A DNA stretch of 64,000 nucleotides from Stegostoma tigrinum. Its lineage: Eukaryota. The notes under the pieces were generated by a model. The model was not told the origin of the DNA. It worked only from the letters and a program-made list of their open reading frames with translations, and did no database searches. A program made the translations under genes and the position numbers. The stretch is taken from contig NC_081356.1 in the NCBI RefSeq assembly GCF_030684315.1, forward strand, positions 77,484,835-77,548,834, in the 5' to 3' direction. Each line of letters starts with the position of its first letter. The stretch's first letter is position 1. Shown piece by piece: positions 7,621-54,859 of the stretch.

Positions 7621-9667
7621 TAAAGCAGTAGTGATTTGCCTTTTTCATGGAAACTCTGGCTATCCACCTTCATTTTGAGTTGTATAGTAATACAATGACT
7701 ATTATACTAATTACTAACCTAAACAGCCTGATTTCAAACACCACCATGCAAAATTAAATAATTTGTGACTTAATGCAAGGTAATTGACATGAAATTTGCC
7801 ATGCTGTCACAAAAATGCAATGGATTTCTTAATGCGCTTCAAGGCAGGAAACCCACTGATCCTGGCCTGTATAACCTACTTCTCCAATCTGTGTGCATTT
7901 TCTGCTCATTCTTAGTGGCCAAACCAGAGACTTATTTTTTAATAAATACCCATAAGATGAAGGACTACCTTCTGCTTCAAGCAACACAGAATGGGCAATA
8001 CACTCACCACAAATACAATAAATGGGATTTCTAGGTTATTTTTGAGTCCATGTAATGTGGTAAAATTAGCATGGATATTAATTCTAATGACATTAATACT
8101 GAAATCGTCTTTGGTGCAAATTAAAATTTGCAGCCTGACTTTCTAAAATTAGCATTTTGCCTGTTTTCCAACTTAAGTGCACAGATACATACAATTCAGA
8201 ATGATGGCAGTATTATTCCTCCACTTGGAAATCCTGTTCGTGAATGGTGAAGCTGAAAACTAACTTTAGCATTTAAGTGAAACCAATCTGTACTCAGCTA
8301 TTTGAAAAGCTCTTTTTCCTGTTTATAAGCACAAGTGTAAGCAGGAAGGGAGGGGCCAGGCATATAATTGAATGTGATGGGATAGGGTGGAGAGTCGTTA
8401 CATTCCCAGTTTCCTGCACCCACGTCACTCCCACTCATTCCACATCAGCTGCCACCACCACGCCCCTGATTGATTAACGTCCTTAATTTGCCAATTAAGG
8501 GCCACATCCCTATGCTGCTGCTATTTTACCAGATGTGAGGGGAGGTGCATCTGCCATGGCAGTAGGCCGTCAAGTAGGCTGTTGGTCTCCCTTCAGACTC
8601 GGGTGGGATTGCCTTCCTGATTGGGCACCCTAAGGACCCTTAAGGTGTGCCCCCCTGAAAGAGCATCCTCTTCCTTCCACAATGACCCTGCCTCAATTCC
8701 CCCGCCCCCCCCCAACAACCTCAGTCAGGCCTGCCTGCCCGCCCAGCTATAGAAAACCAGGCCCACCTCCAGAGACTCTGCCAAGGCTGTTTCTCTGGAG
8801 ACCAGCTGCAGTTGACAAGTACATGGAAAGGGAAGGTTCAGAGGGATATAGGCCATTTGCAGGCAAATGGGATGAATTCAGTTTAGGAAACCTCGCTGGC
8901 ATGGGTGAAGTATTTGTTTCTGTGCTGTCTGACTCTAGTTCCAACAGTGATTGCTGCTCCCAATGCTAATGCAACAAGTGTCCAACTGCTAGCTTCCTGT
9001 GTGGTTGACAGCTCTGGGAGGCCAGCTTTTCACCTTTATAGGCACATGCACACTTCCATGGCAGGTGTGACTGCCTGGATCAATGCTTAACACCAATAGT
9101 GCTCCCAGTAATTGCTACAGTAGGCTTGACACTGGCTTTCCAGTCAGTAGATAGTGCGCTTCCCTGGCATTAAATTCCATCAAAAGGGATTGTGTCACCT
9201 CTCATACCTCAAAGTATTTCCACCGCTTACATGGTAACAGTCAGAAGTGGAAAGAGACATTCCTAGGTTCTTTTGAATGTGTACAGCTGCAGTGACACAG
9301 AAGTAAACTTGAAGTGGTCTTTATAGGAAAATCTCGGTCATACGTGACATAGGGGTCAATGGCAAGAGAATTATTTATTGGTCATCTCCAGTCACTTTGA
9401 GAATGTGTTGGTGAATATCATTCTGAACCGTTCACCTCATGTAGTGAAGATACTTCCAGGGTGCTGTTGGGGATGGAGTTCCTGAAGGTTGATCTAGAGA
9501 CCATGAAGGAATGGCAATCCGTTTCCTATTCAGGCTAGTATGTGATTTGGAGAAAACACGTCTGCATTTGGTGCCTTGACATTCTAGACATTAGACACCA
9601 ACAGTTTAAAAGATTTGAGAATCCTTAATGGTTTGCTGTCGAGTATCTTATGTACAGAGTGCTTACC

Positions 9668-10985
9668 TAAGATACTGAGGTATAGGATCTATTCCCATTT
9701 GGAAGAAAATGGGCTTATCAGTGATAGGCAACATGGTTTTGTACAGGGAAGGTCATGTCTTACCAACTTAATAGAATTCTTTGAGGACGTGACAAAGTTG
9801 ATTGATGAGGGAAAGGCTGTAGATGTCATATACATGGACTTCAGTCAGGCGTTTGAGAAGGTTCCCCATGGCAAGCTAATGGAGAAAATGAAGTTACATG
9901 GGGTCCAGGGTGTGCTAGCTAGATGGATAAAAAACTGGCTCGGCACAGGAGACAGAGAGTAGTAGTAGAAGGAGGTTTCTCAAATAAGGAGACCTGTAAC
10001 CAGTGGTGTTCCACAGGGATCTGTGCTGGGACCACTGTTGTTTGTGGTATATGTAAATGATCTGGAGGTAGGTGTAGGTGGTCTGATCAGCAAGTTTGCT
10101 GATAACACTAAGATTGGTGGAGTAGCTGATAGTGAAGGGGACTGTCAGAGATTACAGCAGAATATAGATAGACTGGAGAGTTGGGCAGATAAATGGCAGA
10201 TGGAGTTCAATCCGGGCAAATGCGAGGTGATGCATTTTGGAAGATCAAATTCAAGGGGGAACTATACAGTAAATGGAAACGTCCTAGGGAAAATTGATGA
10301 ACAGAGAGATCTGGGTGTTCAGGTCCATTGTTCCCTAAAGGTGACAAAGCAGGTCAATAGGGTCGTCAAGAAGGCATACGGCATGCTTTCCTTCATCGGA
10401 CGGGGTATTGAGTACAAGAGTTGGCAGGACATGTTGCAGTTGTATAGGACTTTGGTTCGGCCACATTTGGAGTACTGTGTACAGTTCTGGTCGCCACATT
10501 ACCAAAAGGATGTGGATGCTTTGGAGAGGGTGCAGAGGAGGTTCACCAGGATGTTGCCTGGTATGGAGGGTGCTAGCTATGAAGAGAGGTTGAATAGATT
10601 AGGATTATTTTCATTAGAAAGACGGAGATTGAGGGGGGGGGGCCTGATTGAGGTCTACTAAATCATGAGGGGTATTGACAGGGTGAATAGCAAAAAGCTT
10701 TTTCCCAGAGTGGGGGACTCAATGACTAGGGGTCATGAGTTCAAAGTGAGAGGAGGAAAGTTTAAGGGAGATATGCGTGGAAAGTTCTTTACACAGAGGG
10801 TGGTTGATGCCTGGAGACATGTTAGCGTCTTTTAAGATATATTTGGTCAGGTACATGGATGAGCAGGGAGCAAAAGGACACAGATGGTTAGAAAATTGAT
10901 GACAGGTTAGACAGAGAATCTCGATCGGCACAGGCTTGGAGGGCCGAAGGGCCTGTTCCTGTGCTGTAATTTTCTTTGTTCTTTG
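9668..10985 (+). mobile_element. CR1 LINE, 5'-truncated ORF2 (RT plus C-terminus) with 3' tail
   Basis: ORFs 9615-9962 and 10023-10661 give QHGFVQGRSCLTNL, YMDFSQAF, SKFADNTK and RPHLEYCVQFWSP; frameshifted. Confidence 0.92.
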
Positions 10986-10989
10986 AGAT

Positions 10990-11400
10990 CACCCCTCATT
11001 TGTTTAAACTCTCAACAAAGGCCTAACCTTATTAGATGTTCTTGATAAGTCAACTACTTCATCCCAGGAGTCATCTAGTGAATCTCTTTGAATAGCCTCC
11101 AATATCAATACATCCTTCCTTAAAGTGCTGTCATAACAAGACTCTCTATTTTTAAACTCCCAGCACCCCAGCGACCAAAATCCCATTGGTCTTTTAACTT
11201 ACTTGTTGCACCTGTATACTAATACCCAAGAACACCCAGATTTCTCTGCACTGTATTTTTAGTGTTTCTCTCCATTTAAATAATAGTCTGTCTTTCATTC
11301 GTCCTACCAAAGTGAATCACCTCAAATTTTCCTACATTAAACTCCATCTGCCAAGTTTTAGCCCACTCGTTCAATCTATCTTTATCCCCTTACAGATTCC
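10990..11400 (-). mobile_element. Degenerate CR1 ORF2 fragment
   Basis: Minus ORF LRKDVLILEAIQR... plus residual WQMEFNV-like sequence. Confidence 0.6.
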
Positions 11401-14301
11401 TATACCCTTGCTCCTTTGTTTACTACGTTGCACCACTGTTACACAATGTATGGTGTGGAGAGGTATTTACAGGAGAATATTGTTGACCTGCTCATGTCTA
11501 TGAAGAAGCAAAACTTGGCTTAAAACGCACATAAACAGTAGTAATCTCCTTGTAAATTACAGCACAATTTACAGTTCAAAAACACAGTTTTAATTGAAGA
11601 TTGTAGCAACAGGCTGAAACAGAAAAGTAGAAACATATTGTTGGCTCAGTCAGCTTGAAAGCATGTCACATAGCTGTTTTCTGCCATTTTCTAAGAATAT
11701 CTAACACAGAATGGCCATAGAAGGAATAAAGGCACAAAATAGTCAGTTAAAATAAATGTAGCAAGTTTGGAAGAGGTAGAGAATTGAATTCCCAGTTAAG
11801 GTCATATTGGGCTCAAAACACAAACAAACTCCGCTTCTCTCTCACAGTTGTTGCCAGAACTAAAACTTTCTGTTCCTATTTCAGATCTCCAACATCCACA
11901 GTACTTTGCTTTGTTTAAGACAGGAGAACTGCTTTGTTTCCATGGAACTGAGGTGGATAACAAGGTTCCTCATGCGAAGAAAAGGCACTGGCACTGGGCT
12001 GATTTTCTTCCTACCAAGTGCATAACCTCCCACTTTGCTACATTAAACTCCATCTACCAAATTTATGGACATTCACTCGATCAATGTATATCCCCTTGCA
12101 GATTCCTTGCATCTTCAATCCAATTGCTGGAAAATATTTGATGAATTGAACAAGGTAATAAGGCACCACCCTACCATTTCTTCTATGGGCAGCAACAAAT
12201 TTCTCACTCTGAAATTAACAGCTAGGCTTTAAATGAGTCTTCAAAGTGCTAACTGTTTAATGGGGTCTTGACTGGGGAACTCACATCCCTGTAGCTTCTT
12301 TCTCATTTGAACAGTGCAACCCTCTGCATGCTAATACCCACTGAGCATTTGGTCAACCATTAGTCTCATTAAAGTGTACTCATGTCCCTTTTAATGACAA
12401 ATGGAAAATGGGCATGCAATATTGAATCAGGCAAAAACTGAATCTTGACCTCTTCTCTGTGAGGCCTGGACAATTTCAACTTCCAAACCTTATCTGCTTG
12501 TGAGTTGGCAATTGTTTGTCTCAGTGGCTGGAGGGTGGGACCAAAAAATGGTTTGTGCTGTCATGGGAGATAGTGAGAAAAGTTCTGTGAAGGTGGAGGG
12601 GAGAGAAGATTAAATTCTACTGATGTCAGAGTCACAGGACTGCAAGGTAAGTAAAATAAAAATTCAATCCAATCTTTCCTACCTCTTGATTCCTTTTTTA
12701 TTCATTGGCGAGATGTCTTATGAGATCTTGATTATAAAGGCTTCAAAAACAATGTTGGAGCAATTAAAGTAATTTTTTGAATAGCACAGTTTGGAGGAAA
12801 TGCCACAAAGCCTAACCCCACTCTGCCCATACCAGATACTGATTTCCAGAAAGGGATTCCAACTTCAGAAGCGTGTTAATGTTACCTGCTCAGGAGAAAT
12901 GTTTAAAATAGATTAGTCACTTAGGAGGTCCTCTGCTGCTTCTTCACAGATTATCAGATTGAAAAGTACATTGCTGATGCCTGAGTTACTGGTTGAACAA
13001 CCCTCAGTGTGACTTCCCTGTGAAACACCGTAGAACCACAACCTTCCAGCTCTTACACTTCAATTAAGGGTTTTACCAATTGATTGGTAATACTTGACCC
13101 CTTTTGAAAGGATCACCGCAAATAAACTGTAAGGAAACCTAACAAATTAAACTAAAATGGCATTTCTGAGGGCATTTACTTAATGGCATTTACTTAATCT
13201 ACATTTCCTCTCGTGTCCTTTAGTCATACACAGGCCCACACATACTGTAAGATACTGCAATTGTGTAGTTCCTGTTTGGGGATACTGGGAAATGGATGGA
13301 CGCAGAATGAGCCCCTCAACCATTCATTAGCTGCCTCAAGCTTCTATCCCATGCTTAGCTACTAACTTCTTTCCTGCAGACTGATCACCAATGGGCTAAG
13401 GTACGCATGGAGACACATTTGGAAAAAGATAGTGATGAAGACAGCAGGAGGAATACAGACATTACCATCTTCTTGTGGACAACGATGATGAGAGACAAAG
13501 GAGAATGATGATGAAGGGGGTGAGGCAGGAGATCAATTTGGATCTGAAACAATCCATGAGTTCCTGCACAAATCTCTTCTCTCATTATTCTGTTCCTTCT
13601 CCGGCTCAAACTCCTTGCTTAATTCAGATTGTTTCATCCGAAGGAATTAGAAAAGGCCAGCGAGGAAGTCATATCAGGTGGTTCACACAACACGAGGCAG
13701 CTGGAAGAGTGGGGATTGAAAGAGGATGTGCCATCTTCCTACTGACTGCTGAGGAGAAGGTTGCTGCCCAGAACTTCAAAGAGTTGAGCAGCTCAAACAC
13801 AGGGCTGCATGCTACAGCATTCACTTTCAGTAACATTCGAGAAGTTTTTTTCTTTGTTGCAGGAATAGAGACACAGGCCACATCTTTGGGAGATAAATGT
13901 TGGCCTGCCCAGTGACACCCATGTCATATGAGCAAATTTAGAAAGAGAAGAACTAAGCAGTGCCATCGCTCTTCATAACTACCTATTGCTAATCCTATCA
14001 TCCAATAATGTCATGAGTGCTACCTAGAAGAACTGAAGATAGCACAAATACAAACTAAGCTTTTACGATCTCAAGATTAATTTTTCCTGTCATACAGACT
14101 TGGCACAATGTTGCTGTATACCAAATTCTTTAAAAAAGGTTGAAACAAAACTAATAAATGATGTTATATTTTGGGACATACATAGAAAAAGAAAGCAAAA
14201 CATCACATTGGATTCAAAAATATAACAAAATATTTAAAAATATACATTAAAGATTTAAACATCTTCATTTGAGATATTGTAGTCTATGTCAGACTTCTTC
14301 C

Positions 14302-14987
14302 TCAGACTAATCGTCTTTTCTTTTCAGGGGTCCTGGACTTCCTCCTTCTTAATGCAAAACAAAGTGCTTCAGGTTGCTGCACTGTGGAAGGTCCTAGACT
14401 CTGAGACTGAGGAGGGTGTGTGGGAGAGTGGTCTTCTGAACTTGTTTTGTGGATTGGCTCTTCAAGCACAGACCTCATGAGCCTTGATAGTTCAGGAGAT
14501 GTTTGAGGGAAATGCCGCTGCAAGGATAGATGCATCTCTGAGACGTTTTGTGCCATTTCCCGGGTGTGAAGGAGTAACTGTTGGTTTTGTAGCACCAATT
14601 CTCTGGTGTTGTCAGCCACTCCCTTGGTCTGCTGGGCCACCTGATGGGTATGCTCAGCAACTAAGTGGGTTTCATGAGCTAACTCCCGGGTTGCTTGTAT
14701 GAGATCCCGCATAAGGGGCTGGAATTCTACCCAAAAATCTCTCAAGAATGCAGTCTGCTGGTTTTGAGATTCAAGCAGTTGCCTATCAAATTCATTCACT
14801 AATTTGGCATTGGAAGGTGGGCATGGGCCCCTTTTGGGAAAGTATGTCTCTGATAGTGAGGGTGGCATATTAGGAGTAGGGGGAGATTCTGAGGCTGGTG
14901 TCCAACTTCTTGCTCCATCCTCATTGCAAATGAGTTGTCCTCTCGAGGGACCAGCTTTCTCTGCATAGGATCTTCCTTCTTCCTTTA
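14302..14987 (-). CDS. Uncharacterised Myb/SANT-like (Harbinger-derived) protein, coding exon 2: heptad coiled coil and basic NLS-like tail
   Basis: Lies in a 233-codon uninterrupted ORF outside recognisable repeats. Acceptor ttttttccag|TA AAG GAA at 14988/14987 is phase 1, matching the exon-1 donor. Contains heptads TRELAHE/THLVAEH/THQVAQQ/TKGVADN/TRELVLQ and ends RRRKSRTPEKKRRLV*. Confidence 0.72.
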
Positions 14988-16599
14988 CTGGAAAAAAATA
15001 CAATGAGAGGTTACTCTATTAAATCACAGAACCGAAGAGTACCTAGATTTTAACACATCACACTGTCTTACATCAGTAGGTTCCCTGTAATGTGTTTTAA
15101 AAATTCAAATCTTCTAATCATTTAAAATGGAGCCAAAATTTGAAATATTCTGCATTGTGGTTAGTTTTGAGCAGATAAAATGAATTGAACAGCCATGAAA
15201 TATTCATAGTGTTTGTTTTTAAAAAAAAATTATTGAACCAACAATTCAAATAAAAAAAACACTTCCTTGGCCTCAGGTACAACTGGCAACATATTGTAAC
15301 AGTGCAATTTTTGATATGGACAATGGAAAGTATTGAGAAAAATCAACAGTCTCCAGCAACGTTGTCCTTTTAAAGATCATAAGCAAATAGTCAAATAAAC
15401 ACCTTTTTGTTCAAATCATATCAATTTTGAAGCCTTATCTTTGTGGTATTTTCCTAGATGATGACTCCATGTATCTTGCAGAATTTGCCACCTCTACCAA
15501 CTGTGTATGGGTCGTTTGGAATAAGTCAGGGTTGTTTGGAATAAGTTACTGACACCAACTCTCATTTGCCTTTGTTTTACCTTGGGCTTATCTGGCAATT
15601 ACTAAAGAGTATCCACAAGACAGGTCCTGTTCTCAGATAACAAAAAGGCTTATTGCATAATTACGAGGACCATTGCGAGCCGGCACAGCTATGTCTTGTC
15701 CCTTTGAAAGCCTGAGTTGAACTCCCTGTCTTCATCTACATTGTGGCATCAGTAGCACGGGTGGGACCACTGTAATATGAACATTAACTCCTTACCATTA
15801 CCATCTACAACAGTGTAACAGGCTTATTGGCTCCATGATTTATGAAATGTAAAAGTGAACATATATCAATCCCTTTGAACCATTAAAAACAAAACCACCT
15901 TCCAAGTCCACTGCAGAAGACAATTAGGATGAGTAAAACATACCAGTTGTGAGAAAAAAAACAGAAAATATTTAATAGTGCAAAAAGTATGAATATGCTA
16001 TTTTGTCAGGGGAAAAATGCGCGAAGCACCTCCACGAACAAAATGCGACATGTAACCTTCATTTTGTTCAAAAAGATGTGAAACCTCCCAAGAAGAAACA
16101 AAGAAAGGATTCCTTTGTTCTGACTGCTAAAATAAGAATGCATGTAATAACATGTCTAAGAAATGTATTTAAGAGAATATACAACTTTTAAAACATACTG
16201 AAGAATTTTAAAAGCTTTATCTGAAAAATATTGCCACTTTGCAAAGTTTTAAATTTCAAACAATTTAAAAATACACGAGCTTTGCAAGAAAAGGAAGATT
16301 TAAAAGCTAGAACAGCAAATCACTACAGAACAACCAGTAAGCGCAATTTCAAGCTTTGTTAGTAGAATTTGATACAGTTCAACCATGATACAGAGTTAGC
16401 AAAGACTGGTTAATAAAGAACACAGTGCAACATCAATAGCAAAGTTTACAGTAACTTAAAATAAACTGGATTCCTGAATATAAGACGACAAGCAGATAGA
16501 ATATTTGATTTTAATAAAATTGTAATTATAAAGATTTGCATACCTTTAAAGTCAGAATATTGATCAATCCATTAAGGAGGAATTGAAAGATAATATTTC

Positions 16600-17930
16600 C
16601 TAGCAGATTCAAAATCAGAGAGTCCTTGCAAAACACAGGATTGGACTTTATGGAGGAAACAGTTCCTAAGATAAAGAACTACTTCAAAGTTGAATGCTAA
16701 ATCAGAAGCAGAACAAGTTACTACACCATTATATTTAATAGGTCCTATAGCTAATGTTATTAGAAATCACCAGAAGATAAAGGAAGGTAGAGACACGTTT
16801 AATGATGTTCTAAATATTTAGACAATACTTTAACTTGAAAATGAAGTCTTGAACAGGCAAAATGGATTTTGGAGACAATTTCATAAATGACCACTTCAAA
16901 TTAGTTGAAACCTGTATACATGGAGCCTTGCAATCAAAGTTCATAAACATCAGAATTCATGGAAGAACACTTGATCAGACCCATCACAGACTAAAGGAGA
17001 TTCTACTGTGAAAAACACACATACACTGAAGCAGACACTCGGAAATATCACAAACAAATCCTCAGAGGAAAAGAACAACCTTATGACAGAGCCTATTAAC
17101 TTCATACGCGCACTCTAAATAGATAATGTGACAAGTCAACAAAAAGAGGCATGAGATCAGATACTTAGAGTCAGTGTCAGTGCTATGGAACAGAAAAAAC
17201 TTCATAGGCTAAAAGCAGTATTCAGCTGTGATAGAAGTGTATTGCATCTGTTAAGAAAATGGTAATTTCCAAAGGACGTGCAGGATTTGAAACAGGTTCC
17301 AGAACAGTGGACATACTAACAGGCACACACATAAACAGCTTAATGCAGTGGATCAGCATCTCCATTAAAAGAAAAGCCCACATTTCAAGATATGCCTCCA
17401 CTGGAAGAGATACCTAAAGCATTCCTAAAGCAAATAGGAGATCCATCATTACTGATAAGACTGAATTTACTTATGTCACTGAATATCGTACTCAATTTAA
17501 GCCTCAGAAAAGGCTAGGTATGACTGTACTATCGGAATAAATACCATGGTTACAAAAACAGAAGTTATAACCTACAAATCAAGAGTTGCAATTAATCTTA
17601 CAACATAAAGGATATCAGATAGTAGAGAAAGCATCAATCGTTGAGATTAAGGAAACCAGACTATTAAGCAAGAAAGCATATTGTGTCCTCAACCTCCTTC
17701 AAAAAGGCTGAAGAACTACATTAGCATATGGAGAAAAGTTTCTTTGAGATGGAATACTCAAGATTGTTCACAGAATCAGGCAAACTCAATAATGAATAAC
17801 AGTATAACGTTAGGAAAGATTCTAAGTCATGATTCTGCCACATACCCTTCGTGAATCAAATTTAGAAACAGCTTCAGGAAATGACAAGAACCGGTGTCAT
17901 TTTGTGGGCAGCCAAACTAAATGAATAGTG
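16600..17930 (+). mobile_element. Highly decayed Ty3/Gypsy gag-pol relic inside the Myb-gene intron
   Basis: Hand translation gives DWTLWRKQFLR*RTTSKLNAKSEAEQVTTPLYLIG and DNFINDHFKLVETCIHGALQSKFINIRIHG (gag-like), then LLSKKAYCVLNLL, EYSRLFTESGKL and QLQEMTRTGVI (protease-RT linker-like); many stops. Confidence 0.65.
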
Positions 17931-19839
17931 CTTGTGCATGTTTACTGTCGTCAATAGCTTACTGATCTTTAGTGTCTCTACCTATCATTATCTTCTGCTG
18001 ATTTCTAACATAATCAGCTAATAGGACCTATTAAATATAGTGGTTTAGTGACTTGTTCAGCTTCTAATTTAGTATTCTGCTTTGAAGCAGTTCTTTATCT
18101 TAGGGGAACTGTTTCCTCCATAAAGTCTAATTGTGTGTCTAGTCAGGACATCTCCGATTTTGAATCTGTGAGGAAGTATTATTTTTCAATTTCTCCTTAA
18201 TGGGTTGGTCAATATTCTAATTTTAAAAGTACTGTCTTCCCCTTCTATCACTCACACTTCAAATGTAATTTAATGCACAACAGTTTGGGATGACTTGAAG
18301 ATAATAGACTAAAGGCACTATAACAATATATGATCAACCTGAGAAGGTGATAGACTTGCCAATTTTAAATCAATATTACCACATCTATATGATATTTGAA
18401 TTAATTTGGCACCCCAATTAAATTAAAACAATCCATATAAGTTCACTACTCTTTAGAAGTGTTACTTATGTAAACATAACAGCTGCTATGTGCCAAATAT
18501 CCCAAGTGAGATAAATGATAATGACATTAATTTGAATGTTGAATAAAAATGTTCGAATGATCTTGACCATCCACATGAACCATCAGGACTATGGTTCAAC
18601 ATTTTATCAAAAGACCAGTAGCTCTAAGTGTAGCAGTGCCTCAGTGCTGCCCTGGAATCCTAGCCTGGAATTGTGTGACCAAGTCTTGATGTGGCACTTG
18701 CCTGCCAAATCTTTTTACGCAGCAGCAAGATAAGACTGGCAATCCAATAACAACAACTACTAACATGAATAAGCTCCAAAACATGCTCCAAATCCGAACT
18801 GATCTACTGCACCTAATTCTGATTCACACAACGAATATGTAAGACCAGAAACCTCATTTAGATATGGATGCAGCTCTACATAAATCAAGACAAAACAATA
18901 CGTGAGGTCGAGGGTCAGTGTATAGTGAAATCATGAGTCAAATTCGGATAACCTGAAACTCCAGCAGAATGAGAAATTCAGTAGAAGGATATGAATTGTT
19001 CAGGCTGGTAGCTCCAGGCTAATCAAATCCATGTAGTCTCGGCATATAACCATACGAGCCAATCGGAATGGCTGTACTAGCTGGAGTAGAGAACATTCCC
19101 AACCCTGAACAATTCTGCAGGTATTGGGAATAACCGTGGTAAAGAGCCTGGGCTATAAGAGTACAGTTGCAGCAACGGACAGCTGGACCAATTCAAAGCA
19201 AGGTAATGGCATTGCAGTGAGGGTGTGGAATTAGACCCTGAAGAGACTGATGAATACCCATCTGCCAGTTTTCTGAGCTGAAGCCGTAAAGGATGTAGAA
19301 ATGCTCAAGATTTGATACTGCAGCAGGAAAGCACAGAAGTTTTAACTGCATTGATGACATGGCAGACTGTATTGTTCTTGACAGAAAACAAAATAACAAA
19401 GGAAGATTGAGTTTTTCCACTGCTAACTTCCAACTTCTTTTTCAGTGCTGTTTAGGCTATAATAAGTTATTGACAAATTGAAAAATAAATATTTTTTTCA
19501 CATATTTACTATATTTCTGTATTTCCATTCTTTTTTTTTGACACAGAATACATTTATAGGCAAACCAGGTTACATGGTGGATTCCTCAGCTACTCAAAGC
19601 TCCACTTAAACATGAATTTGTGGGAGGGCCCCCTGCAATTTGATTTTTCATTTCCCAAGCCTATGTTTTACTCCAGCCTAGATGGATGTGTTGGGAGTGT
19701 CTCCATCCTCATAATTATAAGGATCACATGAGAAGTGAGCTTTGAAGCTTTAATTCAAGGGAAATTCATGATCCAAGTATAGTGTTGCACTCATTGGGAA
19801 AATAAAACAGTGATTTGAGATGCATGTAGGACATGCCCC

Positions 19840-20805
19840 TGTCGGTATCAATGCTGCTGAGGTGGAGGTGGTCAAGAGCTTCAAGTTCCAAGGAGTGAAT
19901 ATCACCAACAATCTGTACAGGTCCATCCACATTGATGCTACAGGCAAGAAAGCACACCAGCACTTCTACGTCTTCACGAGGTTAAGAAAATTTGGCATGT
20001 CCACAATGGCTCTTACCGATTTTTATAGAAGCACCATAGAAAGCACCCGATTCAGACGTATCACAATTTGGTACGCAACTGCTCTGCCCCAGACCGCAAG
20101 AAATTAGGGAGAGCTGCGATCGCAGCTCAGTTGATCATGAGAACGAGTCTTCCTTCCATTGACTCTGTCTACACTTCTCGCTGCCTTGGGAAAGCAGCCA
20201 GCGTAATCAAAGATCCTTCCCACCCCAGTTATTCTATCTTCCACCCTCTTCCATCAGGCAGAAGATACAGAATTTTGATAAATACATATGAACAGATTCA
20301 AGAACAAGTTCTTCCCCACTGTTATCAGACTTCTGAACATATATTATAGTTGATCTTTCTCCATGTCTTCTTAAGGGATAGTATGGTGGCTCAGTGGTTA
20401 GCACTGCTGCCTCACTGCACCAGGGATCCAGGTTCAATGTTATCCCTGAGTGACTGTCTATGTGGAGTTTGCACATTTTTCCTGTGTCCACATGGTCCAC
20501 TTTTCTCCCACAATCTAGAGATATGTAGGCTCGGTGGATTAGCCATGGGAAATGCAGAGTTACAGGGGTAGGGTGGTGGAGTGGTGCTGGGTGAAGTGCT
20601 CTTCAGATATTTGGGTCAACGTAATGGGCTGAATGGCCTGCTTCCATGCTGTGGGGATTCACTGATTCTCTATAGTTACAACACTATATTCTGTATTCTG
20701 TTCTATTATTCTGATGTACTTATGTCTTATTTGTCTGGTTAAACATAAAACAATACTTTTCACTGTATTTTGGTACATGTGACAATAATAAATCAAATCA
20801 AAAAT
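19840..20805 (+). mobile_element. Rex1/Babar-type LINE 3' fragment, interrupted by a SINE
   Basis: VEVVKSFKFQGVNITNNL...LRKFGMS...FYRSTIES and ...IKDPSHP...LPSGRRYR; tail acaataataaatcaaatcaaa near 20800. Confidence 0.75.
20377..20660 (+). mobile_element. tRNA-derived SINE (HE1/V-SINE-like)
   Basis: ggtggctcagtggttagcactgctgcctcac (A box), ggttcaat (B box-like), tgtggagtttgcacatt core and a CR1-like tail. Confidence 0.8.
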
Positions 20806-21689
20806 CATAAGATAAGGCCTTGAAACAAACTGTTGGCAATTGAACTTTTCTTGATAAACTCATTGAGGAGCCATTTGGATGTCTGATATGCAAAGTGAGA
20901 TCACTCACATTCATAGAGTGAGCCTTACTCCCCTCAGATTAAGATGAAAGCCTGCTGCTTGGGGAGAGGGCAGTGAGCATGAGCTTTTAGCCTGCATCAA
21001 ATCATGCTGAAGCCGATTGGGCAACAGTTGAAAAAATTAGAGGTTCTCCAAATGCGGGAAAACATGTTCTTTTCCGTTGCACCGAAAATTCTGACTTCAA
21101 CAAGAAGACAAATGACCAAGAAACTGAAAGGAGAGAGGAAGCAGGAAATGGATCCATTTCCTTCAGGTTGACTGGGCTGGGCGAAGCTCTTCTTCGAATA
21201 ACAAGCGGCTAGAGAGGCAGATGGTTACTTTTCATATAATGTCTAAAAATATCTGACAGAAGTAGTTTATTTTAACTCAATGTGTTTTTTAAAAATCTTT
21301 CAAACCAGGTGACAGTGTGGATTCTGACCCCCTTTTAATTAATCATACCAGTTGGGGTGGTATTATTTTTTCTAGTTTTATATTTGAAATTCTTTGAACA
21401 GTTTAGACTCAGTCAATTCATATCTGAACATTGACCCAAATAAGTTACAATATGGAAGTGGGTCACTTGGCCCAGCCTAGACATGAATTTCTAGACTATG
21501 AATTCAGAAAACACTTTTACTTGTGTAAAGTATTTGTATGAGCTCAGGACATCCCAAAACACTCTACAGACAGTGAAATCCTTTCTGAAAAGTAATCATT
21601 ACCGTAATATAGGAAAAGAAAACACGTACTTTATAACTATCTCCCAGTGAGGTTCTTTATACATAAAGTAACTTAACAGTCCCAACATA

Positions 21690-22190
21690 CTTGCTTTTTT
21701 TGTTTATTCATGGAATATGGGTATCGTTGACTAGGCTAGCATTTATTGCCCATTCCTACTTGTCCTTGAGGACGTGTTGGTGCATTGCCTTCTTGAACTA
21801 TTGCAGTCCATGGTGTTGGGGACACTGTTGTTATAAAATCAGAAAATTCCTACAGTGTAGGAAGAAGCGGATCTACACCACACAAGGAGAGAGTTTTCAT
21901 TTTTTTTTGGATGTTGGAGTGGTCTGATACAATTGAACAGCATAGGCCATTTCAGAAGGCAGTTAAGAGCCAAACACACTGTTCTGGGTCCAGAATCACA
22001 TGTAAGCCAGCCCAGGTACAATGGAAGATTTTCTAACCTTAAGGACATTAGTGAACCAGATGGGTTTTACAATAATTGACAGTGGTTTTCCTGATCATCA
22101 TCAATCTGGCTTTTAATCCAGGTTTTATTGAATTCAAATTTCACCATACGTCTGGTGTGATTCAAAGCCATATCTCCAGAACAATAGCCT
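21690..22190 (-). mobile_element. Deu-domain SINE, degenerate
   Basis: Reverse-complement match to the 32280-32603 copy (agcatttattgcccat; gacattagtgaaccagatgggt; ttattgaattcaaatt). Confidence 0.6.
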
Positions 22191-22224
22191 AAGTTTCTGT
22201 TTTCTGAATTTGGTGATATTTAGT

Positions 22225-22335
22225 GATGATGCAGAGGTAGTGTCCATATCTCTGAGCCAGGACGTCCGATTCAAATCCTACTTGCTCCAAAGGTATGTAA
22301 TAACATCTCTGAACATGTTGGTTAGAAAATATCCC
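22225..22335 (+). mobile_element. Short tRNA-derived SINE
   Basis: gcagaggtagtgtcc...ttcaaatcc...aacatctctgaac...gttagaaaa; similar copies at about 51627-51745 (+) and 59770-59890 (-). Confidence 0.55.
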
Positions 22336-22462
22336 ACAGCACCTCCCAAAATATTGCCTCAGATGATAATTTAATCTCTCTGTAATGTCCATTAGTTACA
22401 AATAGAATGCAAATTAGATGATATTTAGAATCACGACAAGTTCATCGAAGGGAAACACTTAC

Positions 22463-22868
22463 TTGCCCTCCAGTATGGAAAGTCTGCAGGATCCAGTCCA
22501 CCCATCCACAGTATTGACTGAGGGTGCATGATCTGATGGACTCTCCATTCCTCTGGGATCAGATCTTCTGCTCCACAAGGTTCTACTTGAATTTGACGTG
22601 CCTCTCGGGCCAAATGGGCGACCTCTTTAGTGCGCCGCATAAGGTCATCCCAACGGGTCTTGATGGCCTTTACAGACCGTTTGACCTGTGAGACTGCATT
22701 GACTTTGGCAGTGATATTTTGCCATATCTTATCACGCTCTCCCTGCGACAGTCTGTGGGCACGACCGAAAAGTTGATCCCTATGTGCGGTCACCTCAGCA
22801 ATCAGTACTTCCAGCTCATCTGAGCTGAATTTGGGCAGTCTCTGTCTCCTCTGCTGCTGCTCTGCCAT
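22463..22868 (-). CDS. Uncharacterised Myb/SANT-like (Harbinger-derived) protein, coding exon 1: DNA-binding domain
   Basis: MAEQQQRRQRLPKFSSDELEVLIAEV...LFG...KIWQNITAKVNAVSQVKRSVKAIKTRWDDLMRRTK fits the Myb_DNA-bind_5 pattern of NAIF1/MSANTD and Harbinger Myb proteins. Start context aaaATGG; donor GCA A|gtaagt at 22463/22462 (phase 1; 406 nt). Confidence 0.85.
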
Positions 22869-23503
22869 TTTACTGAAATCTGCAAACTCCTTGCACCACG
22901 TGGCTAACTCCCAACAGAATATTCATTTGCAAGTTGTCAACATGCCCAAACGCTTATTTTGCAGAATCAACAGTCCTAACTGCCCTAATACCTCCTTATC
23001 AGTTATGCCTAAAGTTAATAAATTAGTGGACGTTCCACAAATTTTCCGCAACACAGCAACTTCGTTTGCGTAAAACTTGCACAAAATCTGCTTATGTCTG
23101 CGTGCAGAAAGAGAGGAAGGAGTTTGGTGAGTAGGCGGGGGTCGACAGCAATTTACAGCAGGATTAGTGCTAGCTTGCAATGAGCTGCCGGCAGTATACT
23201 TGCTCTGCAAAGCTGTTTTTTTGCTGTGGTGTTGGAGCCTTTGCCGCAATCCCAGCGACGACTAGCGGACAAAGTGTTTCAACCCGCGTATTCACTCCTC
23301 TCAATAAATCTGGGTACCGGTCTGCGTCTGCGCACACCTGGGGCCGGTGGATCATTCGGCAGCGGCTCACACTAGGGCCACCGGTGTGTCATTCTGCGTC
23401 TGCGCACACCAGGGCACCCGGCGTGGCATTCTGCGTCTGCGCACACCAGGGCTCCCGGTGTGTCGTTCAGCGGCTGCGCACACTCAACGTTTTATTAACG
23501 AAG
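22869..23503. promoter_or_regulatory. CpG-rich bidirectional promoter between the Myb-like gene (-) and CCDC112 (+)
   Basis: 635 bp between divergent ATGs; CpG-dense from about 23100 to 23860 against a CpG-poor background; repeated TGCGTCTGCGCA (NRF1-like); YY1-like AAGATGGC at the CCDC112 start. Confidence 0.75.
23317..23484. repeat. 37-bp minisatellite, about 4.5 copies
   Basis: Units start with CCGG at 23344, 23381, 23418 and 23455 (exact 37-bp spacing), plus a shortened unit at 23317; consensus ccggtgtgtcattctgcgtctgcgcacaccagggcnc. Confidence 0.9.
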
Positions 23504-23530
23504 ATGGCAACCATAGTAACAGGGATGGAG
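23504..23530 (+). CDS. CCDC112: CCDC112 coding exon 1 (MATIVTGME)
   Basis: aagATGG Kozak context; donor GAG|gtgagg; phase 0 fits exon 2. Confidence 0.7.
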
Positions 23531-23620
23531 GTGAGGAGTGATTCTTTCTACTGTTTGTATTTGGTGTGAAGTTTCTCTTTTCGGCGGGGGGCTATGATTA
23601 AATTCTCTCTGTATAAACAG

Positions 23621-23745
23621 GCTGGCGATTGCGGTCGGAAGCCGGACTTAGTGTCGAGGCAGCGGTTGCAGGTTCCCATTCCCGGGCGCAGGGAGTCGGG
23701 CGGGAAGGCCGCCTTCAGCCGGGAGCTCCGCAAACTGTGGCTCCA
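23621..23745 (+). CDS. CCDC112: CCDC112 coding exon 2
   Basis: Acceptor aaacag|GCT, donor CA|gtgagt; 125 nt, phase 0 to 2, completing Gln with exon 3. KAAFSRELRKLWLQ aligns to recalled human KAEFVRTAEKFKNQ. Confidence 0.75.
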
Positions 23746-24516
23746 GTGAGTATAAGTAGCTGTTCCACCTCCACCTCCACCTCAGAGTGAATTTGCAGCC
23801 GCGGTCAGGTGGAATATGCTGTTCCAAAACCACGACCGTAAAGAGAGCCTTACGGTCCGTCGTGTATCTGCTGGCTCAAAGCTGTCTTTCTAATTTCACT
23901 TTTCATGAAACGAATGAGAATAAGTAGGAAATTCATTGAGATCATGGCTGATCTGATAATCCGACGTTCTATTTGCCTACCTTTTCCTCATAGTTCTTGA
24001 TTCCTTTACTGATTAAAAATCTATCTTTGCCTTGAATGTACTTACTGACCCAACTTCAACTACTGTCTGTGATAAAGAAACCTAGGACTCACTACCATCT
24101 GGGGGAAGAAATTCCTTCTTATCTTTTTCTTAAATGTGTGAACCTTATTCTGAGATTTTCCCTGCTCGTCCTAGACTTCCCAAGAAGGGGAACAACTTCT
24201 CAGGATCTACCCTGAGGATGTCCTCTAAAAGTATTGAATGTTTAACTGAAGTTATTTCATTCTAACTACACTGGGTACAGGCTTAACCTCTCCTTATAAA
24301 ACAGTCCCTCCATACCCAACGTTGACTTAGTAAACCTGCTCTGAAGTGCCTGTAATGCCAGTATATATCTCCTGAGATAAGGGGACCGAAACTATACCAG
24401 TATTCCAGCTGTAGTTAGTATAGTGTCTTGTAAGTTTTAGCAAAACCTCCTCACGTTTATACTCTATTCCCTTTCAAATGAAGGCCAACACTCCACTTGC
24501 CTCCCCTGTTATCTGT

Positions 24517-25720
24517 CATCATCAAGCTAGTGGACCTATGCCTTACCACCCACTTCACTTTCAATAACAAAACCTTCAGACAAACCAACGGTACACCCAT
24601 GGGATCTCCGATATCAGGGTTCTTAGCAGAGGCAGTAATGTAGAGACTCGAACAAACAGCTCTGCCAACCATCCAACCCAAACTTTGGGTCTGCTATGTG
24701 GATGACACCTTTGTCATCACTAAACAAAACAAATTAGAGGAAACCTTCAAGACCATCAATAATACCATTACTGGCATAAAATTCACAAAAGAGGAGGAAA
24801 ACAACAACAAACTGCCATTCCTAGATGTCACAGTAGAGCGAACAGCCAATGGGGAAACAACACATACGGACCAAATACTGAACTACAGAAGCAACCATCC
24901 CAACATCCACAAACGAAGCTGCATTAGAACATTATTTCAACGAGCCACCACACACTGCAGCATAGAGGAACTACGAAGAGCAGAAGAAAATCACCTACAC
25001 AGCGTATTCAAAAAGAACGGGTACCCAATGAACACAGTCCGATTTCTCAGCAACAAACCCAAACAAACAGACAAAACGGGCCCAGAAACCATAACCACTC
25101 TCCCCTACATCAAAGACATCTCGGAAATGACTGCCAGACTACTTGGACCTCTTGGCATCATGGTAGCCCACAAACCCACCAACACACTGAAACAGCAGCT
25201 AATGAACTTAAAAGACCCTATACAGACAACAAGCAAAACGAACGTCATTTACAAAATACCTTGCAAGAACTGTGACAAACACTACATTGGACAAACAGGC
25301 AGAAAGCTAGCCACCAGGATACATGAACATCAACGAACCGCAAAAAGACATGACCCACTATCACTATATTGTTACGTACAGATGAGGAAGGACACCACTT
25401 TGACTGGGACAACACATCCATCCTAGGACAAGCCAAACAGAGACACGCACAAGAATTCCTAGAAGCATGGCATTCCAACTGGAACTCCATCAACAAACAC
25501 ATTGATTTGGAGCCCATCTACCACCCTCTGAGAAAAAGAACAGGAAATGACACCAACACATGAAATGACATCACCAACCCAAGGAAACCTAAACACAAAT
25601 AGAAAGTGGGACATAACACCAGCGCTTCATCGGAGGCTCACTGATGATGTTACCTCGAATGGTGACGAAATGTCTGAAAATGAACCTTCCAGCTCAGCGA
25701 GCAAACTTACATCCAGAACT
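24517..25720 (+). mobile_element. Penelope-like element: RT C-terminal part, GIY-YIG endonuclease and terminal repeat
   Basis: GTPMGSPISG, YVDDTF, HPNIHKRSCIRTLFQRA and VIYKIPCKNCDKHYIGQTGR; an in-frame stop and a frameshift are present. Confidence 0.9.
25636..25680 (+). ncRNA. Minimal hammerhead ribozyme motif (PLE-associated)
   Basis: tca-CTGATGA-t-GTTACC-tcgaat-GGTGAC-GAAA-tGTC-tga: conserved core, 6-bp stem II and UCA/UGA stem I. Confidence 0.7.
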
Positions 25721-26314
25721 GTCTGCAGTCTTTCTCCATTTAAAAATATTTAGCACCTTTGTCCTGCCAATATACTTAGCCTCACATTTTCCATGTTATA
25801 TTCTATTTGCTAAGTTTTTTGCCCACTTGCTTTATTTGTCCATATCCCCCTGCAGACTGAGTCATACACAGCACTTGCCTTCCCAATTATGTTTGTTATC
25901 TGCACACGTGGCTGTAATACATTCAATTTCCTCATTCTAGTTACTGTCTAATGTGTATTGTAATAATTGTGGCCCTGACACTGAGCATGTTGGCACTCCT
26001 AGTTAGATTGTCATTCTGAAAATATACTCCTCCATCCTCCACACCCCAATTCTGTCTTCTATTAGTTAGCCAGTCCACTGATCCACGGTAATATACTTCC
26101 AACACTATAGACTTTAGTTAAATAGCCTAATGTGTACTTTATCAAATGCCTTTTAGATATTTCACATCTACTACTTCCCCGTTGACTGTCTTGCTTGTTC
26201 CTTCCTCAAAGAATTGTTTGTCAGACAGAATTTTCCCTTAGTGAAGCAAGGCTGACTCTGCTTGTTCAGATTGTATATTTCAAAATGCTGTGCTGTTTGT
26301 CTTCTACAAAATAA

Positions 26315-26999: not shown

Positions 27000-27660
27000 G
27001 GATGTGAGTTTACTCGCTGAGCTGGAAGGTTAGTTTTCAGATGTTTTGTCACCATTCTAGGTAACATCATCAGTGAGCCTCCGGTGAAGCGCTGGTGTTG
27101 AGTCCCGCTTTCTATTTATCTGTTTAGGTTTCCTTGGTTTGGTGATGTCATTTCCTGCGTTGGTGATGAACATCAACTAGCCACAAAAAGACATGACCCA
27201 CTATCACTAGTATCCTTACACACAGATGAGGAAGGACACCACTTTGATTGGGACAACACATCCATCCTAGGACAAGCCAAATAGAGACATGCACGAGAAT
27301 TCCTAGAAGCACGGCATTCCAACCGGATCTCCATCAACAAAAACATTGATTTGGAGCCTATCTACCATCCTCTGAGAAAAAGAACAGGAGTTTTGAAAAG
27401 ATTTGTAGCTCAGGTTGAGTTTCTGGATGTGAGTTTGCTCGCTGAGCTGGAATGTTAGTTTTCAGACGTTTCATCACCATTCGAGGTAACAATGACCTAA
27501 GGAAACCTAAACAGACAAATAGAAAGCGGGACAAAACACCACAGCGCTTCACCGGAGGCTCACTGATGTTACCTAGAATGGTGACGAAACGTCTGAAAAT
27601 TAACCTTTCAGCTCAGCGAGCAAACTCTCATCCAGAAACTCAACCTGAGCTATAAATCTT
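27000..27660. mobile_element. Cluster of four Penelope terminal fragments in alternating orientation
   Basis: About 27000-27167 (-), 27168-27388 (+, copy of 25326-25543), 27389-27492 (-) and 27493-27660 (+); same family as 24517-25720. Confidence 0.8.
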
Positions 27661-34963: not shown

Positions 34964-35039
34964 TTGTAGAAAAGTTGAAAGAAATCATGGAAGAGGTAGA
35001 AAATGCAATCACTACCTTTAAAGAAGAACAAAGGCAGAT
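34964..35039 (+). CDS. CCDC112: CCDC112 coding exon 5
   Basis: FVEKLKEIMEEVENAITTFKEEQRQ; acceptor cttag|, donor AT|gtaagt. Confidence 0.93.
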
Positions 35040-36245
35040 GTAAGTTCTTGTATATCTGCACTTATCAGCACCATGACAATTCAGACCTTGAGTTGAATTA
35101 TATGTGTTAATGTTATGGCTGAAAATTAAAACTGAATCTTTGAAGCTGAGGTTTTAAACTTGAATTGACTGTAAATTTGTTATTAATCTCGATACACACT
35201 TCCAGTCTGTGAACTTATTTTTCAACATCTGCACAGAACAAATTTAAATTTATGAGCATAAAAATGAATTCTGTGTCCACACTGAGCTTTGGTGCTACTT
35301 TAACACTTATTGGGATGTAAGAGTTTAGGAAAGAGTGGCTGTGGCAGAAATTAACTATCTGAACCCTTTATTGTCATTGCCATAATTCAGCGAAAATAAG
35401 CAAAACAGTCAGTGGCAGAATTAGAAATGATAAATTTAGGTTGTTACTAGAGAACAATTTATAAAGTTATGATTAAATATGTTAGTAATTTGAAATGTCA
35501 AGCTGGGAGCAATTTGAAATGTTAAAGGGACCATCTCGACTGTCATCCTCCTGTTACTGAGTCATATAAAGTTTACCTAGGAGGAAATTTGAATTCTCCC
35601 ACATGCTCCATTTCACCACTGTTTTAATACCTTCATTCTCTGCTGGGGTAGTTTAATGGAATACTGCTAAAGAAATTTGCATTAGCATCTGCTGCCTTCC
35701 ACATGCATGACGTTAATGGGTGTGATGTTAATACATGGTGCTTCTAGTGCATTAAACTATCTGTTAGAATATAAACTTAGATAGTCAATAAATTTCAGTT
35801 AGCTGGGAAATAACAGCATGTGGAACTATTCTTATATTTTATGAAAAATTAGAATAAGCACTATTGTCCTCTCTTCCTACTGTTTCCTTTGTAGCATTTG
35901 TTCAAGAGTGAATTTCATAGCACATAGCAGGATATCAGAGAATCTAGTTTCTTTCACTTTAAGATGCATGACCTGGCAGCACTAGTATTGAATTATAAAG
36001 GGATCTACGAATGACATGATACACCAGGACGTTTGAATTAGTTGAATTTTGTCTAGAATAAGGTTGGATTTATCAGTTAGGAATGGATTCAGGCTGAGGG
36101 TATGCAAACCATATAAAAACAACTGTTGTTTTGATCCAAAACAGTTTGTACTTGTACATACCCATTTTTAAAACCTGCATCGTTAGATTTGTACCAGAGA
36201 GCACCTTTGCAAATATAATAGTGTTTCCACTCATTTTTAACAAAG

Positions 36246-52460: not shown

Positions 52461-52869
52461 AATCGTTTAAAAACGCTGCCTCAATGTGAACCTTCACCGT
52501 AGGGATAACTAAAACACGTTGGGTCGGTTTTGAAGCTAAAGGCTTTGTCCCATCAGAACGAGACAAGCTTGAAGTGCCCTGTGTTAATTTCGCTATTGCT
52601 TTAACGCAACCTAACGTTGGTTGAAGTTATTGAAGAACAGCGTATAAATTCCAAATTTTGTTCAAATAATGGGAAATTCGGAGGGGAAAAAAAGGAAGAT
52701 ATCAGATAGGTTTTTTTTGACGAAACTGTTGAGGTTTGATTGAACCACTATTGCATCTTTCAAAGTATGTAATTTCACCTCCACAGAGAGAAACGTGACG
52801 CTGTTTTAGAACTTTTTAATTGTTCGCATTTAACCCACCAGATGAATTTTGTTGCAGGATGTAAAGGCT

Positions 52870-53257
<388 letters not shown>

Positions 53258-54859
53258 TAAACTCGGCCCGACCCATCAGCCCTACCGGGGGAGTGGGGTG
53301 GTGGGTGAACTGGGAACCCGTCCCGGGGAGGGGACAACATCCTCTCCGCTACTCCTGGGGTAGGAACAGGGTCTTCAACTGACAGTTCCTGGCGCCTTTA
53401 GCAGGCGTGCGGAGTTTTCGGAGGTTGCAAGTTGGGTGGGGCAATCGAGATGGTAACTGGAAACTGCTTAGTGTATGGGAACGCTTCGCGTTGATTCTCG
53501 TAATTTACAAGTTGTGAAGCACGAAAAGAGGCTGCATCTTTCATCAAACATGACTTCATCGTGAAAGGTGATTTGTGGTGCTTATTTTCTCGAAGGCCTT
53601 TACTGCTCAGTGAGGTTGTTGAACAGTTTTGAGATGTGTTGTAATTACCCGTGCAAGCCCAGGTTTGTACATCACTCCTGAGACACCCCTAAATCATTAA
53701 CTTTATAATTAGATCTACTTAAATAGAGTGGTACACACTTGCCTTGGTACTTCAGGTTTTTATGAATCACCATGAGGGAATTTTGTGACGCAGTATACAG
53801 TACTGAACGCGACCCTTTGTCCCCGTGCTCATCACACTCTTGCTGTTTCTGCGCATTCCTGTAAACGTTTCCCTTTAAGAATTTATCCAATTTATTTCTT
53901 TATGCTCACTGAATCTGTTTTCAGTTGCTCTTCCTGGCAATGCCTTTCAGTTCATAAAGCACTTTACTACATAAAAGTGAGGAAATTATGCCAAATATTT
54001 ATACAGCAATATAATAAAGATTGCTGCGGTGCAGAAGAGCTCCATTAAAATGGTGTAACAAAACCAAAGGAAACTACTGGTGTTGAATGTTTACCAGCAG
54101 ATCGTTTTCAGAAGTGTGAAATTTCCACTCTGTCAACGTTTACGAAGTACGCAAAGTAACCATGAAGGTATGGCAAGCAAATAAGTTAAATGGCATTTTG
54201 GCTTTGTGCGAGAGAGCGATCAGAGCAGAGAACATAGAGAAAGGACTCGTGCTGTATTACAAAGAGCGCCTCGCAAGTAAAAATACAACATAGTGAAATC
54301 GTAAGACAATTGGGGAGAATTTTGATGACACCATATCTGGAGTACCGTGCACACTTTGGTCTCCACGTTTTAAAAAAAATGTACTTGTATTAGGAGCGTT
54401 GTTGAGACTCAGTGGGATAGTACTATGGAAATCAAGCCCTGCTAAACTCAGTCACAAAATTTGAAGATTTTATAGAAGTACAAAAAACTCTGCAATTTAA
54501 CTGATTTTTCAAACCCAGTTTGACAAAAGCATGAACTAGATTTCCATACCTAACAAAAATTGCCATTATGTATAAATGGACTCTAGCTTCATGTAAACAA
54601 TTATAAATCATTAGCATCTAATCCTATTGGTTAAACTCTAACTGCATTATAAACTCTGTCATCGACAGAAGTGTGTTGACAGGAAACAAACATGGATGGA
54701 GGGCAAACTGGGAAAGCGGTTCACTTTTATTACCACAGAATATACTGAGGTGGTTTGTGTTGATCAGAATGCTGCTTTTCATGTTTTCCTTCTGATCCTT
54801 GCATTCGTTTACATGAGACGTGAGGTAGGACCAAGATGTAGAATTAAACTCCGCAAAAT

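Follow-up and report, generated by a model that had tools for sequence, protein, structure and literature searches.

The analysed stretch (the window) comprises 64,000 nt of Stegostoma tigrinum NC_081356.1 (77,484,835-77,548,834). Two genes diverge within it from a CpG-rich gap, a Myb-like gene on the minus strand and CCDC112 on the plus strand, and PGGT1B comes after CCDC112, from 53066 (Table 1). The preliminary description, made from the letters of the window, had placed the two start codons head-to-head at 22868 and 23504 with 635 bp between them, had named the genes as Myb-like and CCDC112, and had called the gap CpG-rich, and all of this was borne out. The minus-strand ORF matched Myb_DNA-bind_5 (PF13873, E 3e-18), the CCDC112 exon was 100% identical to a named zebra-shark record and the exons of the gene were mapped, and the gap showed a GC content of 0.506 with 35 CpG and a CpG o/e of 0.86, compared with 0.29 for the window.

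Table 1. Features of the Myb/CCDC112 locus, in window coordinates.
Feature	Position	Strand	Remarks
Myb coding exon 1	22463-22868	-	aa 1-135; PF13873 tri-helix domain aa 10-82; GT donor at 22462
Myb intron, single	14988-22462	-	7.5 kb; holds high-copy repeats
Myb coding exon 2	14302-14987	-	aa 136-363, then stop
Myb 5' UTR	22869-23179	-	contiguous with coding exon 1; minimum extent, from related species
Myb 3' UTR, probable, minimum extent	14077-14301	-	run X1 contig 14077-14280; X1 is RNA only by guess
YY1-like site	22864-22871	-	over Myb start codon
YY1-like site	23501-23508		at CCDC112 start
37-bp tandem repeat	23321-23483	+	3 copies and a partial one; four GCGnnTGCGCA sites
Shared promoter interval, inferred	23180-23503	.	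GC 0.58, o/e 0.95; must also hold CCDC112 5' UTR
CpG island	23063-23919	.	857 bp, GC 0.54, o/e 0.88; Gardiner-Garden criteria
CCDC112 coding span	23504-47815	+	
CCDC112 coding exon 1	23504-23530	+	
CCDC112 coding exon 2	23621-23745	+	also in run X3 contig
PGGT1B CpG island	52809-53547	.	separate; PGGT1B ATG 53066; within-window control

Joining 22868-22463 to 14987-14302 reproduced the 363-aa protein XP_048383942.1 letter for letter, with GT/AG ends at the intron. The exon 1 ORF and the ORF at 14305-14988 were both 100% identical to this Stegostoma tigrinum record, which NCBI names 'uncharacterized protein si:ch211-261d7.3'. A middle exon near 21000-21220 was ruled out, as both the contig described below and the protein record splice 22463 straight to 14987. 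The product of exon 2 comprises a low-complexity linker, a conserved long helix (about aa 195-294) and a basic C-terminus. No AATAAA/ATTAAA polyadenylation signal was found on the minus strand of 13300-14301. The intron also contains a long inverted repeat (arms about 16541-16796 and 17972-18231, 84-89% complementary), which resembles a decayed DNA transposon and has ORF fragments without a Pfam match above threshold.

Structure prediction for aa 1-98 gave three helices (pLDDT 67), and the best fold match of this model among 48,161 chains was the GT-1 trihelix (Z 8.8, rmsd 2.4, 75 aligned), followed by Zeste bound to DNA (Z 8.4, rmsd 3.6, 70 aligned), with Z scores that exceed only slightly the background which the tool gives for small helical folds. 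Residues F14, W49 and W73 were conserved in at least 90% of 64 aligned rows. The protein has the tri-helix Myb/SANT domain with conserved aromatics that is expected of the Harbinger Myb-like class. The full-length model was poor (pLDDT 51), yet the long C-terminal helix was visible in it, and two designed coiled-coil peptides were the sole matches of a PDB sequence search. Past the third helix (window 22700-22720, aa 82-83), a lysine of the family consensus has no counterpart in the shark proteins, which are shorter there by one residue and are also without the glycine-rich motif that comes next.

The CpG content of the gap was compared with that of every 635-bp stretch of the window, for which the median was 6. 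At least 35 CpG were counted in 963 of 63,366 stretches, all of them at the Myb/CCDC112 island or the PGGT1B island. The Myb/CCDC112 island overlaps the Myb 5' UTR (23063-23179) and CCDC112 exons 1-2, i.e., the first exons of both genes, and is off-centre in the gap, leaning to the CCDC112 side; the 232 bases adjoining the Myb ATG are AT-rich (GC 0.40). A bidirectional pair is expected to have starts less than 1 kb apart and a CpG island over both first exons, and both features were found here, with Myb exon 1 running unbroken to 23179. An own-species DNA contig of 1669 nt (run X4, 22291-23959, 1 mismatch) spans both ATGs, indicating that the adjacency of the two genes is not an assembly error, although run X4 is possibly not independent of the source of the assembly. 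The PGGT1B island lies 5 kb past the CCDC112 stop and carries CCAAT, GC-box and YY1-like sites. Within CCDC112, an exon at 34964-35040 is present in the records of relatives and is skipped in the zebra-shark protein isoform X2. Intron 2 of this gene holds a Penelope-like retroelement remnant (24530-25720) with a weak GIY-YIG match (E 0.002), and a rearranged partial copy of the remnant lies downstream (27020-27640).

Transcription was assessed with runs X1, X2 and X3, which are from related species and were taken as RNA by guess, mapped on 13300-24400; together with run X4 they make up the four runs used of the seven listed. A 1418-nt contig of run X2 aligned to 23179-22463 and then to 14987-14301, i.e., as a spliced transcript, indicating that the Myb gene is expressed in a related species. 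The first exon of this contig continues unbroken for 311 bases beyond the Myb ATG, into the island, and the 5' end reached 23092 in run X3 and 22979 in run X1. No sign of a separate distant promoter was seen. Two short upstream ORFs are present in the Myb 5' UTR (ATG 22943, 6 aa; ATG 22926, 18 aa). At its 5' extremity, the X2 contig has 35 nt that could not be aligned to the window, for which divergence is a likelier cause than an upstream exon, because no polypyrimidine acceptor lies there in the window.

CCDC112 exon 2 was covered in runs X2 and X3, the runs that cover Myb exon 1 as well. None of the RNA pieces listed lay over 23180-23619, which includes CCDC112 exon 1 and its 5' UTR, and this was given no weight. 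Contig depth over CCDC112 exon 2 versus Myb was 71 versus 8.5 in run X2 and 7.2 versus 5.0 in run X3, values that cannot rank the genes. As the contigs show no start, strand or level, both starts are bounded only to about 23180-23503, and most likely both fall within these 324 bp. The preliminary description had assigned one 635-bp promoter to the pair. A shared CpG-island promoter is still the probable reading, and its size had to be revised, since 22869-23179, about half of the gap, is Myb 5' UTR and the putative shared promoter therefore measures at most about 324 bp.

Four matches to GCGnnTGCGCA were found in the whole window, all in the 37-bp repeat, compared with 0.03 expected; the copies of this repeat are 77-95% alike, and we take its sites to be NRF1-like by their consensus. 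NRF1-like sites gave 7 matches on both strands at 4 places, with as many in 1 of 200 shuffles, a result inflated by the tandem repeat, and the 2 YY1-like sites each overlap an ATG, with as many in 3 of 200 shuffles. The YY1-like site at the Myb start is not specific, because similar sites cover the CCDC112 and PGGT1B starts. ETS, CCAAT and ZNF143 patterns had 0 matches at the Myb/CCDC112 promoter. Enrichment of NRF1, GABPA, YY1, NF-Y and ZNF143 at divergent promoters has been reported (PMC3082894).

A close orthologue of the Myb protein was detected in each of 16 cartilaginous fishes, the chimaera among them, and all were intact with 359-371 aa. Between zebra shark and chimaera, 60/75 residues (80%) of the Myb domain and 73/93 of the helix were identical, as were 21/51 of the linker, 23/71 of the tail and 299/474 of CCDC112. 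Both domains of the Myb protein were more conserved than CCDC112 (78-80%, versus 32-41% for linker and tail). Judged from these protein comparisons, such domain-wise conservation of an intact ORF is the pattern of purifying selection. In the orthologue tree, the chimaera stood apart, batoids (100/100) and carpet sharks (100/100) formed groups, and two squalomorphs were unplaced. In the skate Amblyraja, a short alternative first exon replaces the Myb exon in one annotated isoform, which keeps the helical half alone. A second, distinct Myb/SANT gene is present in Heterodontus and Pristiophorus, where it forms its own tree branch and is a candidate domesticated gene; in Heterodontus it sits on another chromosome.

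Linkage to CCDC112 was followed through sequence records. The Myb and CCDC112 records were on chromosomes or scaffolds of equal length in 12/12 other assemblies with both. Their accessions differed by at most 2 in 5/10 assemblies and by at most 17 in 8/10 (Callorhinchus 1, Chiloscyllium punctatum draft locus tags 1, Heptranchias 1, Mobula hypostoma 1, Hypanus 2, Hemiscyllium 12, Hemitrygon 16, C. plagiosum 17, Carcharodon 306, C. punctatum RefSeq 7665), where accession order is a proxy for neighbourhood that gives neither strand nor distance. Accessions were looked up for 4 of the 12 CCDC112 clusters from outside the zebra shark, and that of the chimaera was taken from the record name. By this proxy, the genomic position of the Myb gene is the same in two sharks, two rays and the chimaera. 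The C. punctatum draft has the two genes as adjacent models, whose over-extended N-termini match the promoter-repeat motif, one on each strand; the match on the Myb side is weak (the top three window matches fall there, and 2/100 shuffles scored as high). For two Scyliorhinus species, Narcine, Mobula birostris and Cetorhinus, all with a CCDC112 record, no Myb record was among the matches. The preliminary description was to be taken as refuted should the arrangement be already annotated across vertebrates; this applies in part, as the neighbours are annotated across cartilaginous fish and the same configuration has been published for NAIF1 and HARBI1 in human.

When 1.84 billion representatives were searched with a profile, a single cluster scored E 1e-195 and the runner-up 4e-33; there were 749 matches at E 0.001, of which the best 150 were considered and 14 were looked up. 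The best relatives outside cartilaginous fishes among the matches listed were a LIN37-fused Myb of the coelacanth (E 4e-33) and a PRDM11-linked Myb of birds (E 6e-29), the latter annotated alone or as PRDM11 isoforms and joined by a wombat protein of the same group. Newt, sturgeon, bichir and teleost proteins were also looked up, and those bearing names were either host genes or uncharacterised proteins. No bony-vertebrate orthologue of the shark gene was resolved by the profile search and trees. In a 34-row tree of the Myb domain, the shark group (100/100) stood beside several other well-supported groups, all radiating from an unresolved centre.

A Pfam scan of 48 long matches detected SNARE, PR, KRAB, zinc-ribbon, Rpc34, CARD and ankyrin partners, and none of these 48 relatives had a transposase fused to the Myb domain. 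In many relatives, the annotation joins a Myb/SANT exon to a host N-terminus, as with LIN37 in the coelacanth and PRDM11 in birds, and further annotated fusions involve t-SNARE, zinc ribbon (presumably VRK3-like), Rpc34 and KRAB. Some of these fusions may be annotation read-throughs; as a set, they suggest that host 5' exons were captured repeatedly.

At the locus itself, 96 ORF fragments taken from 11000-14300 and 15000-19800 gave no Pfam match to a transposase family, the other side being CCDC112. Of 80 inverted repeats in 9000-26000, the 25 longest include none that flanks the Myb gene on both sides. A plus-strand ORF at 13439-13915, which by eye had been read as a transposase C-terminus pointing towards the Myb gene, was rejected as it had no Pfam match. 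The hallmarks of an autonomous Harbinger element, a DDE transposase ORF and 25-50-bp terminal inverted repeats with multiple copies, were not found here. As neither a transposase nor bracketing repeats were detected in these scans, the Myb gene is no live element, and with no transposase remnant and no Myb-plus-transposase protein, its transposon ancestry rests on family membership. NAIF1 and MSANTD1-4 are described as derived from Harbinger Myb-like genes, with PRDM11, TSNARE1 and MYPOP as further putative members, and repeated independent domestications are reported (PMC9392472); the same derivation is given for TSNARE1 elsewhere (bioRxiv 2021.02.09.430442). The PMC9392472 survey began from human proteins, and it would therefore miss a gene absent from human.

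The reading that we favour, and hold to be rather probable, is that a Myb-like ORF became established in antisense orientation at the CCDC112 island before chimaeras and elasmobranchs diverged, is divergently transcribed and has been kept as a nuclear DNA-binding adaptor. The ORF would have landed antisense just upstream of CCDC112, where an unmethylated island with NRF1-like sites would have given it divergent transcription and protected it from silencing. Transposase and element ends would have been lost afterwards, and selection would have retained the DNA-binding domain and the long C-terminal helix. By analogy with NAIF1, MSANTD3 and plant ALP2/HDP2, which serve as models for the adaptor role, the protein would most likely oligomerise or recruit chromatin complexes through this helix. 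CCDC112 and the Myb gene probably share a common on or open state with differing output, more than any tight co-regulation. Against the reading as a whole stands the background rate of head-to-head placement, about 10% of genes in human (PMC2777200). Capture of the promoter nevertheless seems the likeliest way in which the gene arose. The preliminary description had proposed exactly this, a transposon gene domesticated by capturing the antisense output of an existing promoter. A spliced, conserved Harbinger Myb-like gene with its first exon in the island agrees with that proposal; direct insertion did not find the same footing, as no transposase or element ends were detected at the locus and an already domesticated paralogue could have moved in.

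The latter course, in which the promoter is shared today and the gene is a duplicated or relocated domesticated Myb of the PRDM11/LIN37-linked group, is unlikely, while deserving serious consideration. It would account for the lack of a transposon relic at the locus and for the finding that the best outside relatives among the matches listed are host genes (LIN37- and PRDM11-linked). The Mybs linked to these genes align over about 250 aa at 31%, and the start of the C-terminal helix is common to them (E 6e-8, 2e-7; 151 proteins). The helix motif is also present, more weakly, in several other lineages, however, and may therefore stem from the transposon protein itself. The shark (100/100) and PRDM11/LIN37 (95/92) groups are moreover separate in the 34-row tree, with no supported branch joining the two, and repeated independent domestications are on record (PMC9392472), all of which argue against relocation.

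An origin in the jawed-vertebrate ancestor, followed by loss in tetrapods and retention beside ccdc112 in ray-finned fish, where the gene would be si:ch211-261d7.3, appears improbable. NCBI names of this type generally come from an orthology call, and the zebra-shark and whale-shark proteins both bear this one; it is, however, found on 2/16 species only, and the profile drops from E 1e-195 to 4e-33 outside the shark cluster. No bichir, sturgeon or teleost protein grouped with the shark clade in a 180-row quick tree or the 34-row tree. In Huso and Atractosteus, the accession of PGGT1B directly adjoins that of CCDC112. A sturgeon two-Myb gene shares the CCDC112 chromosome but is 80 accessions away in Huso. 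Literature searches returned no paper naming zebrafish si:ch211-261d7.3, and the Atlas gave no such name for XP_048383942.1 or one teleost candidate. An ancestral gene of this kind is compatible with promoter capture; it would change the age and novelty of the pair, which would then be one that has long been annotated in vertebrates.

It is very unlikely that the promoter is itself partly a transposon end, with the 37-bp repeats as relic subterminal sites through which the Myb protein regulates itself and CCDC112. The repeats do lie just past the Myb 5' end, Harbinger Myb-like proteins are reported to bind their own transposon DNA (PMC9392472), and a Harbinger-derived protein has been described as acting in cis on genes in its neighbourhood (PMC11893794). 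The 77-95% likeness of the copies, however, suits a recent tandem expansion better than a relic from before the chimaera split, the repeats match the NRF1-like consensus, and the inverted repeats surveyed do not bracket the gene. That the Myb gene beside CCDC112 is a young or still mobile transposon copy, or a product of misassembly, can practically be dismissed: the domain family is transposon-associated and the window repeat-rich, but the 1669-nt DNA contig crosses both ATGs, each species has one close orthologue in a species-like tree, the domains are conserved above the level of CCDC112, and DNA run depth over the Myb exons (about 21-32) is that of unique sequence, with repeats reaching thousands.

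The shark gene adds to the Harbinger-derived family an apparently undescribed, very old and lineage-restricted candidate transcription factor. In the openly accessible literature, no paper was found that links CCDC112 with a bidirectional promoter, and none on the shark Myb gene or the Myb/CCDC112 pair by title or abstract start. CCDC112 is present in bony vertebrates, apparently without a Myb partner, so the locus offers a before/after comparison and raises the question of whether the unpaired CCDC112 island was already firing antisense. A broader and rather doubtful extension would be that Harbinger Myb-like ORFs of a single ancient lineage were fixed repeatedly at host 5' ends in early jawed vertebrates, with promoter borrowing as a general gate, and that the shark gene was so born and is tied to CCDC112 expression. 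The antisense cases would be CCDC112 here and SLC25A25 for NAIF1, on CpG islands, and the spliced cases PRDM11, LIN37, the t-SNARE gene, the zinc-ribbon protein and the Rpc34 N-terminus. If true, the genes seen today would be lineage-specific survivors, and the shark gene a transcription factor peculiar to cartilaginous fish.

Hijacking of CpG-island promoters by domesticated genes was proposed by Kalitsis and Saffery in 2009 (PMC2777200), who report head-to-head arrangement on an island for 23/63 human and 12/45 mouse domesticated genes, compared with about 10% genome-wide. The shark pair resembles their model in that an island covers both first exons and the starts are less than 1 kb apart. 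Their survey was of human and mouse, and the present case, older than the chimaera/elasmobranch split, extends the model to cartilaginous fish; the mechanism itself is not new and is already published for the Harbinger family, because NAIF1 and HARBI1 are both listed (PMC2777200). In the supplement of that paper, NAIF1/SLC25A25 is bidirectional on a CpG island with starts 880 bp apart in human and 782 in mouse, and HARBI1/KIAA0652 shares a CpG-island promoter with starts 350 bp apart. NAIF1 is like the shark gene in its PF13873 class and its head-to-head CpG-island setting, and when Atlas clusters are ranked by features for the shark protein, the third bears the name NAIF1 (0.93). It differs in partner (SLC25A25) and locus, it is reported across jawed vertebrates (PMC9392472) whereas the shark gene was resolved in cartilaginous fish only, and its binding to HARBI1 has been reported. 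HARBI1 is likewise Harbinger-derived and on a shared island, but unlike the shark gene it descends from the transposase, not from the Myb-like gene. The nearest relatives by profile are the PRDM11-linked, LIN37-linked and TSNARE1 Myb/SANT exons, MSANTD1-4 and MYPOP; the annotation fuses those of PRDM11, LIN37 and TSNARE1 with host exons, whereas the shark gene is free-standing, antisense to its host and on a separate branch.
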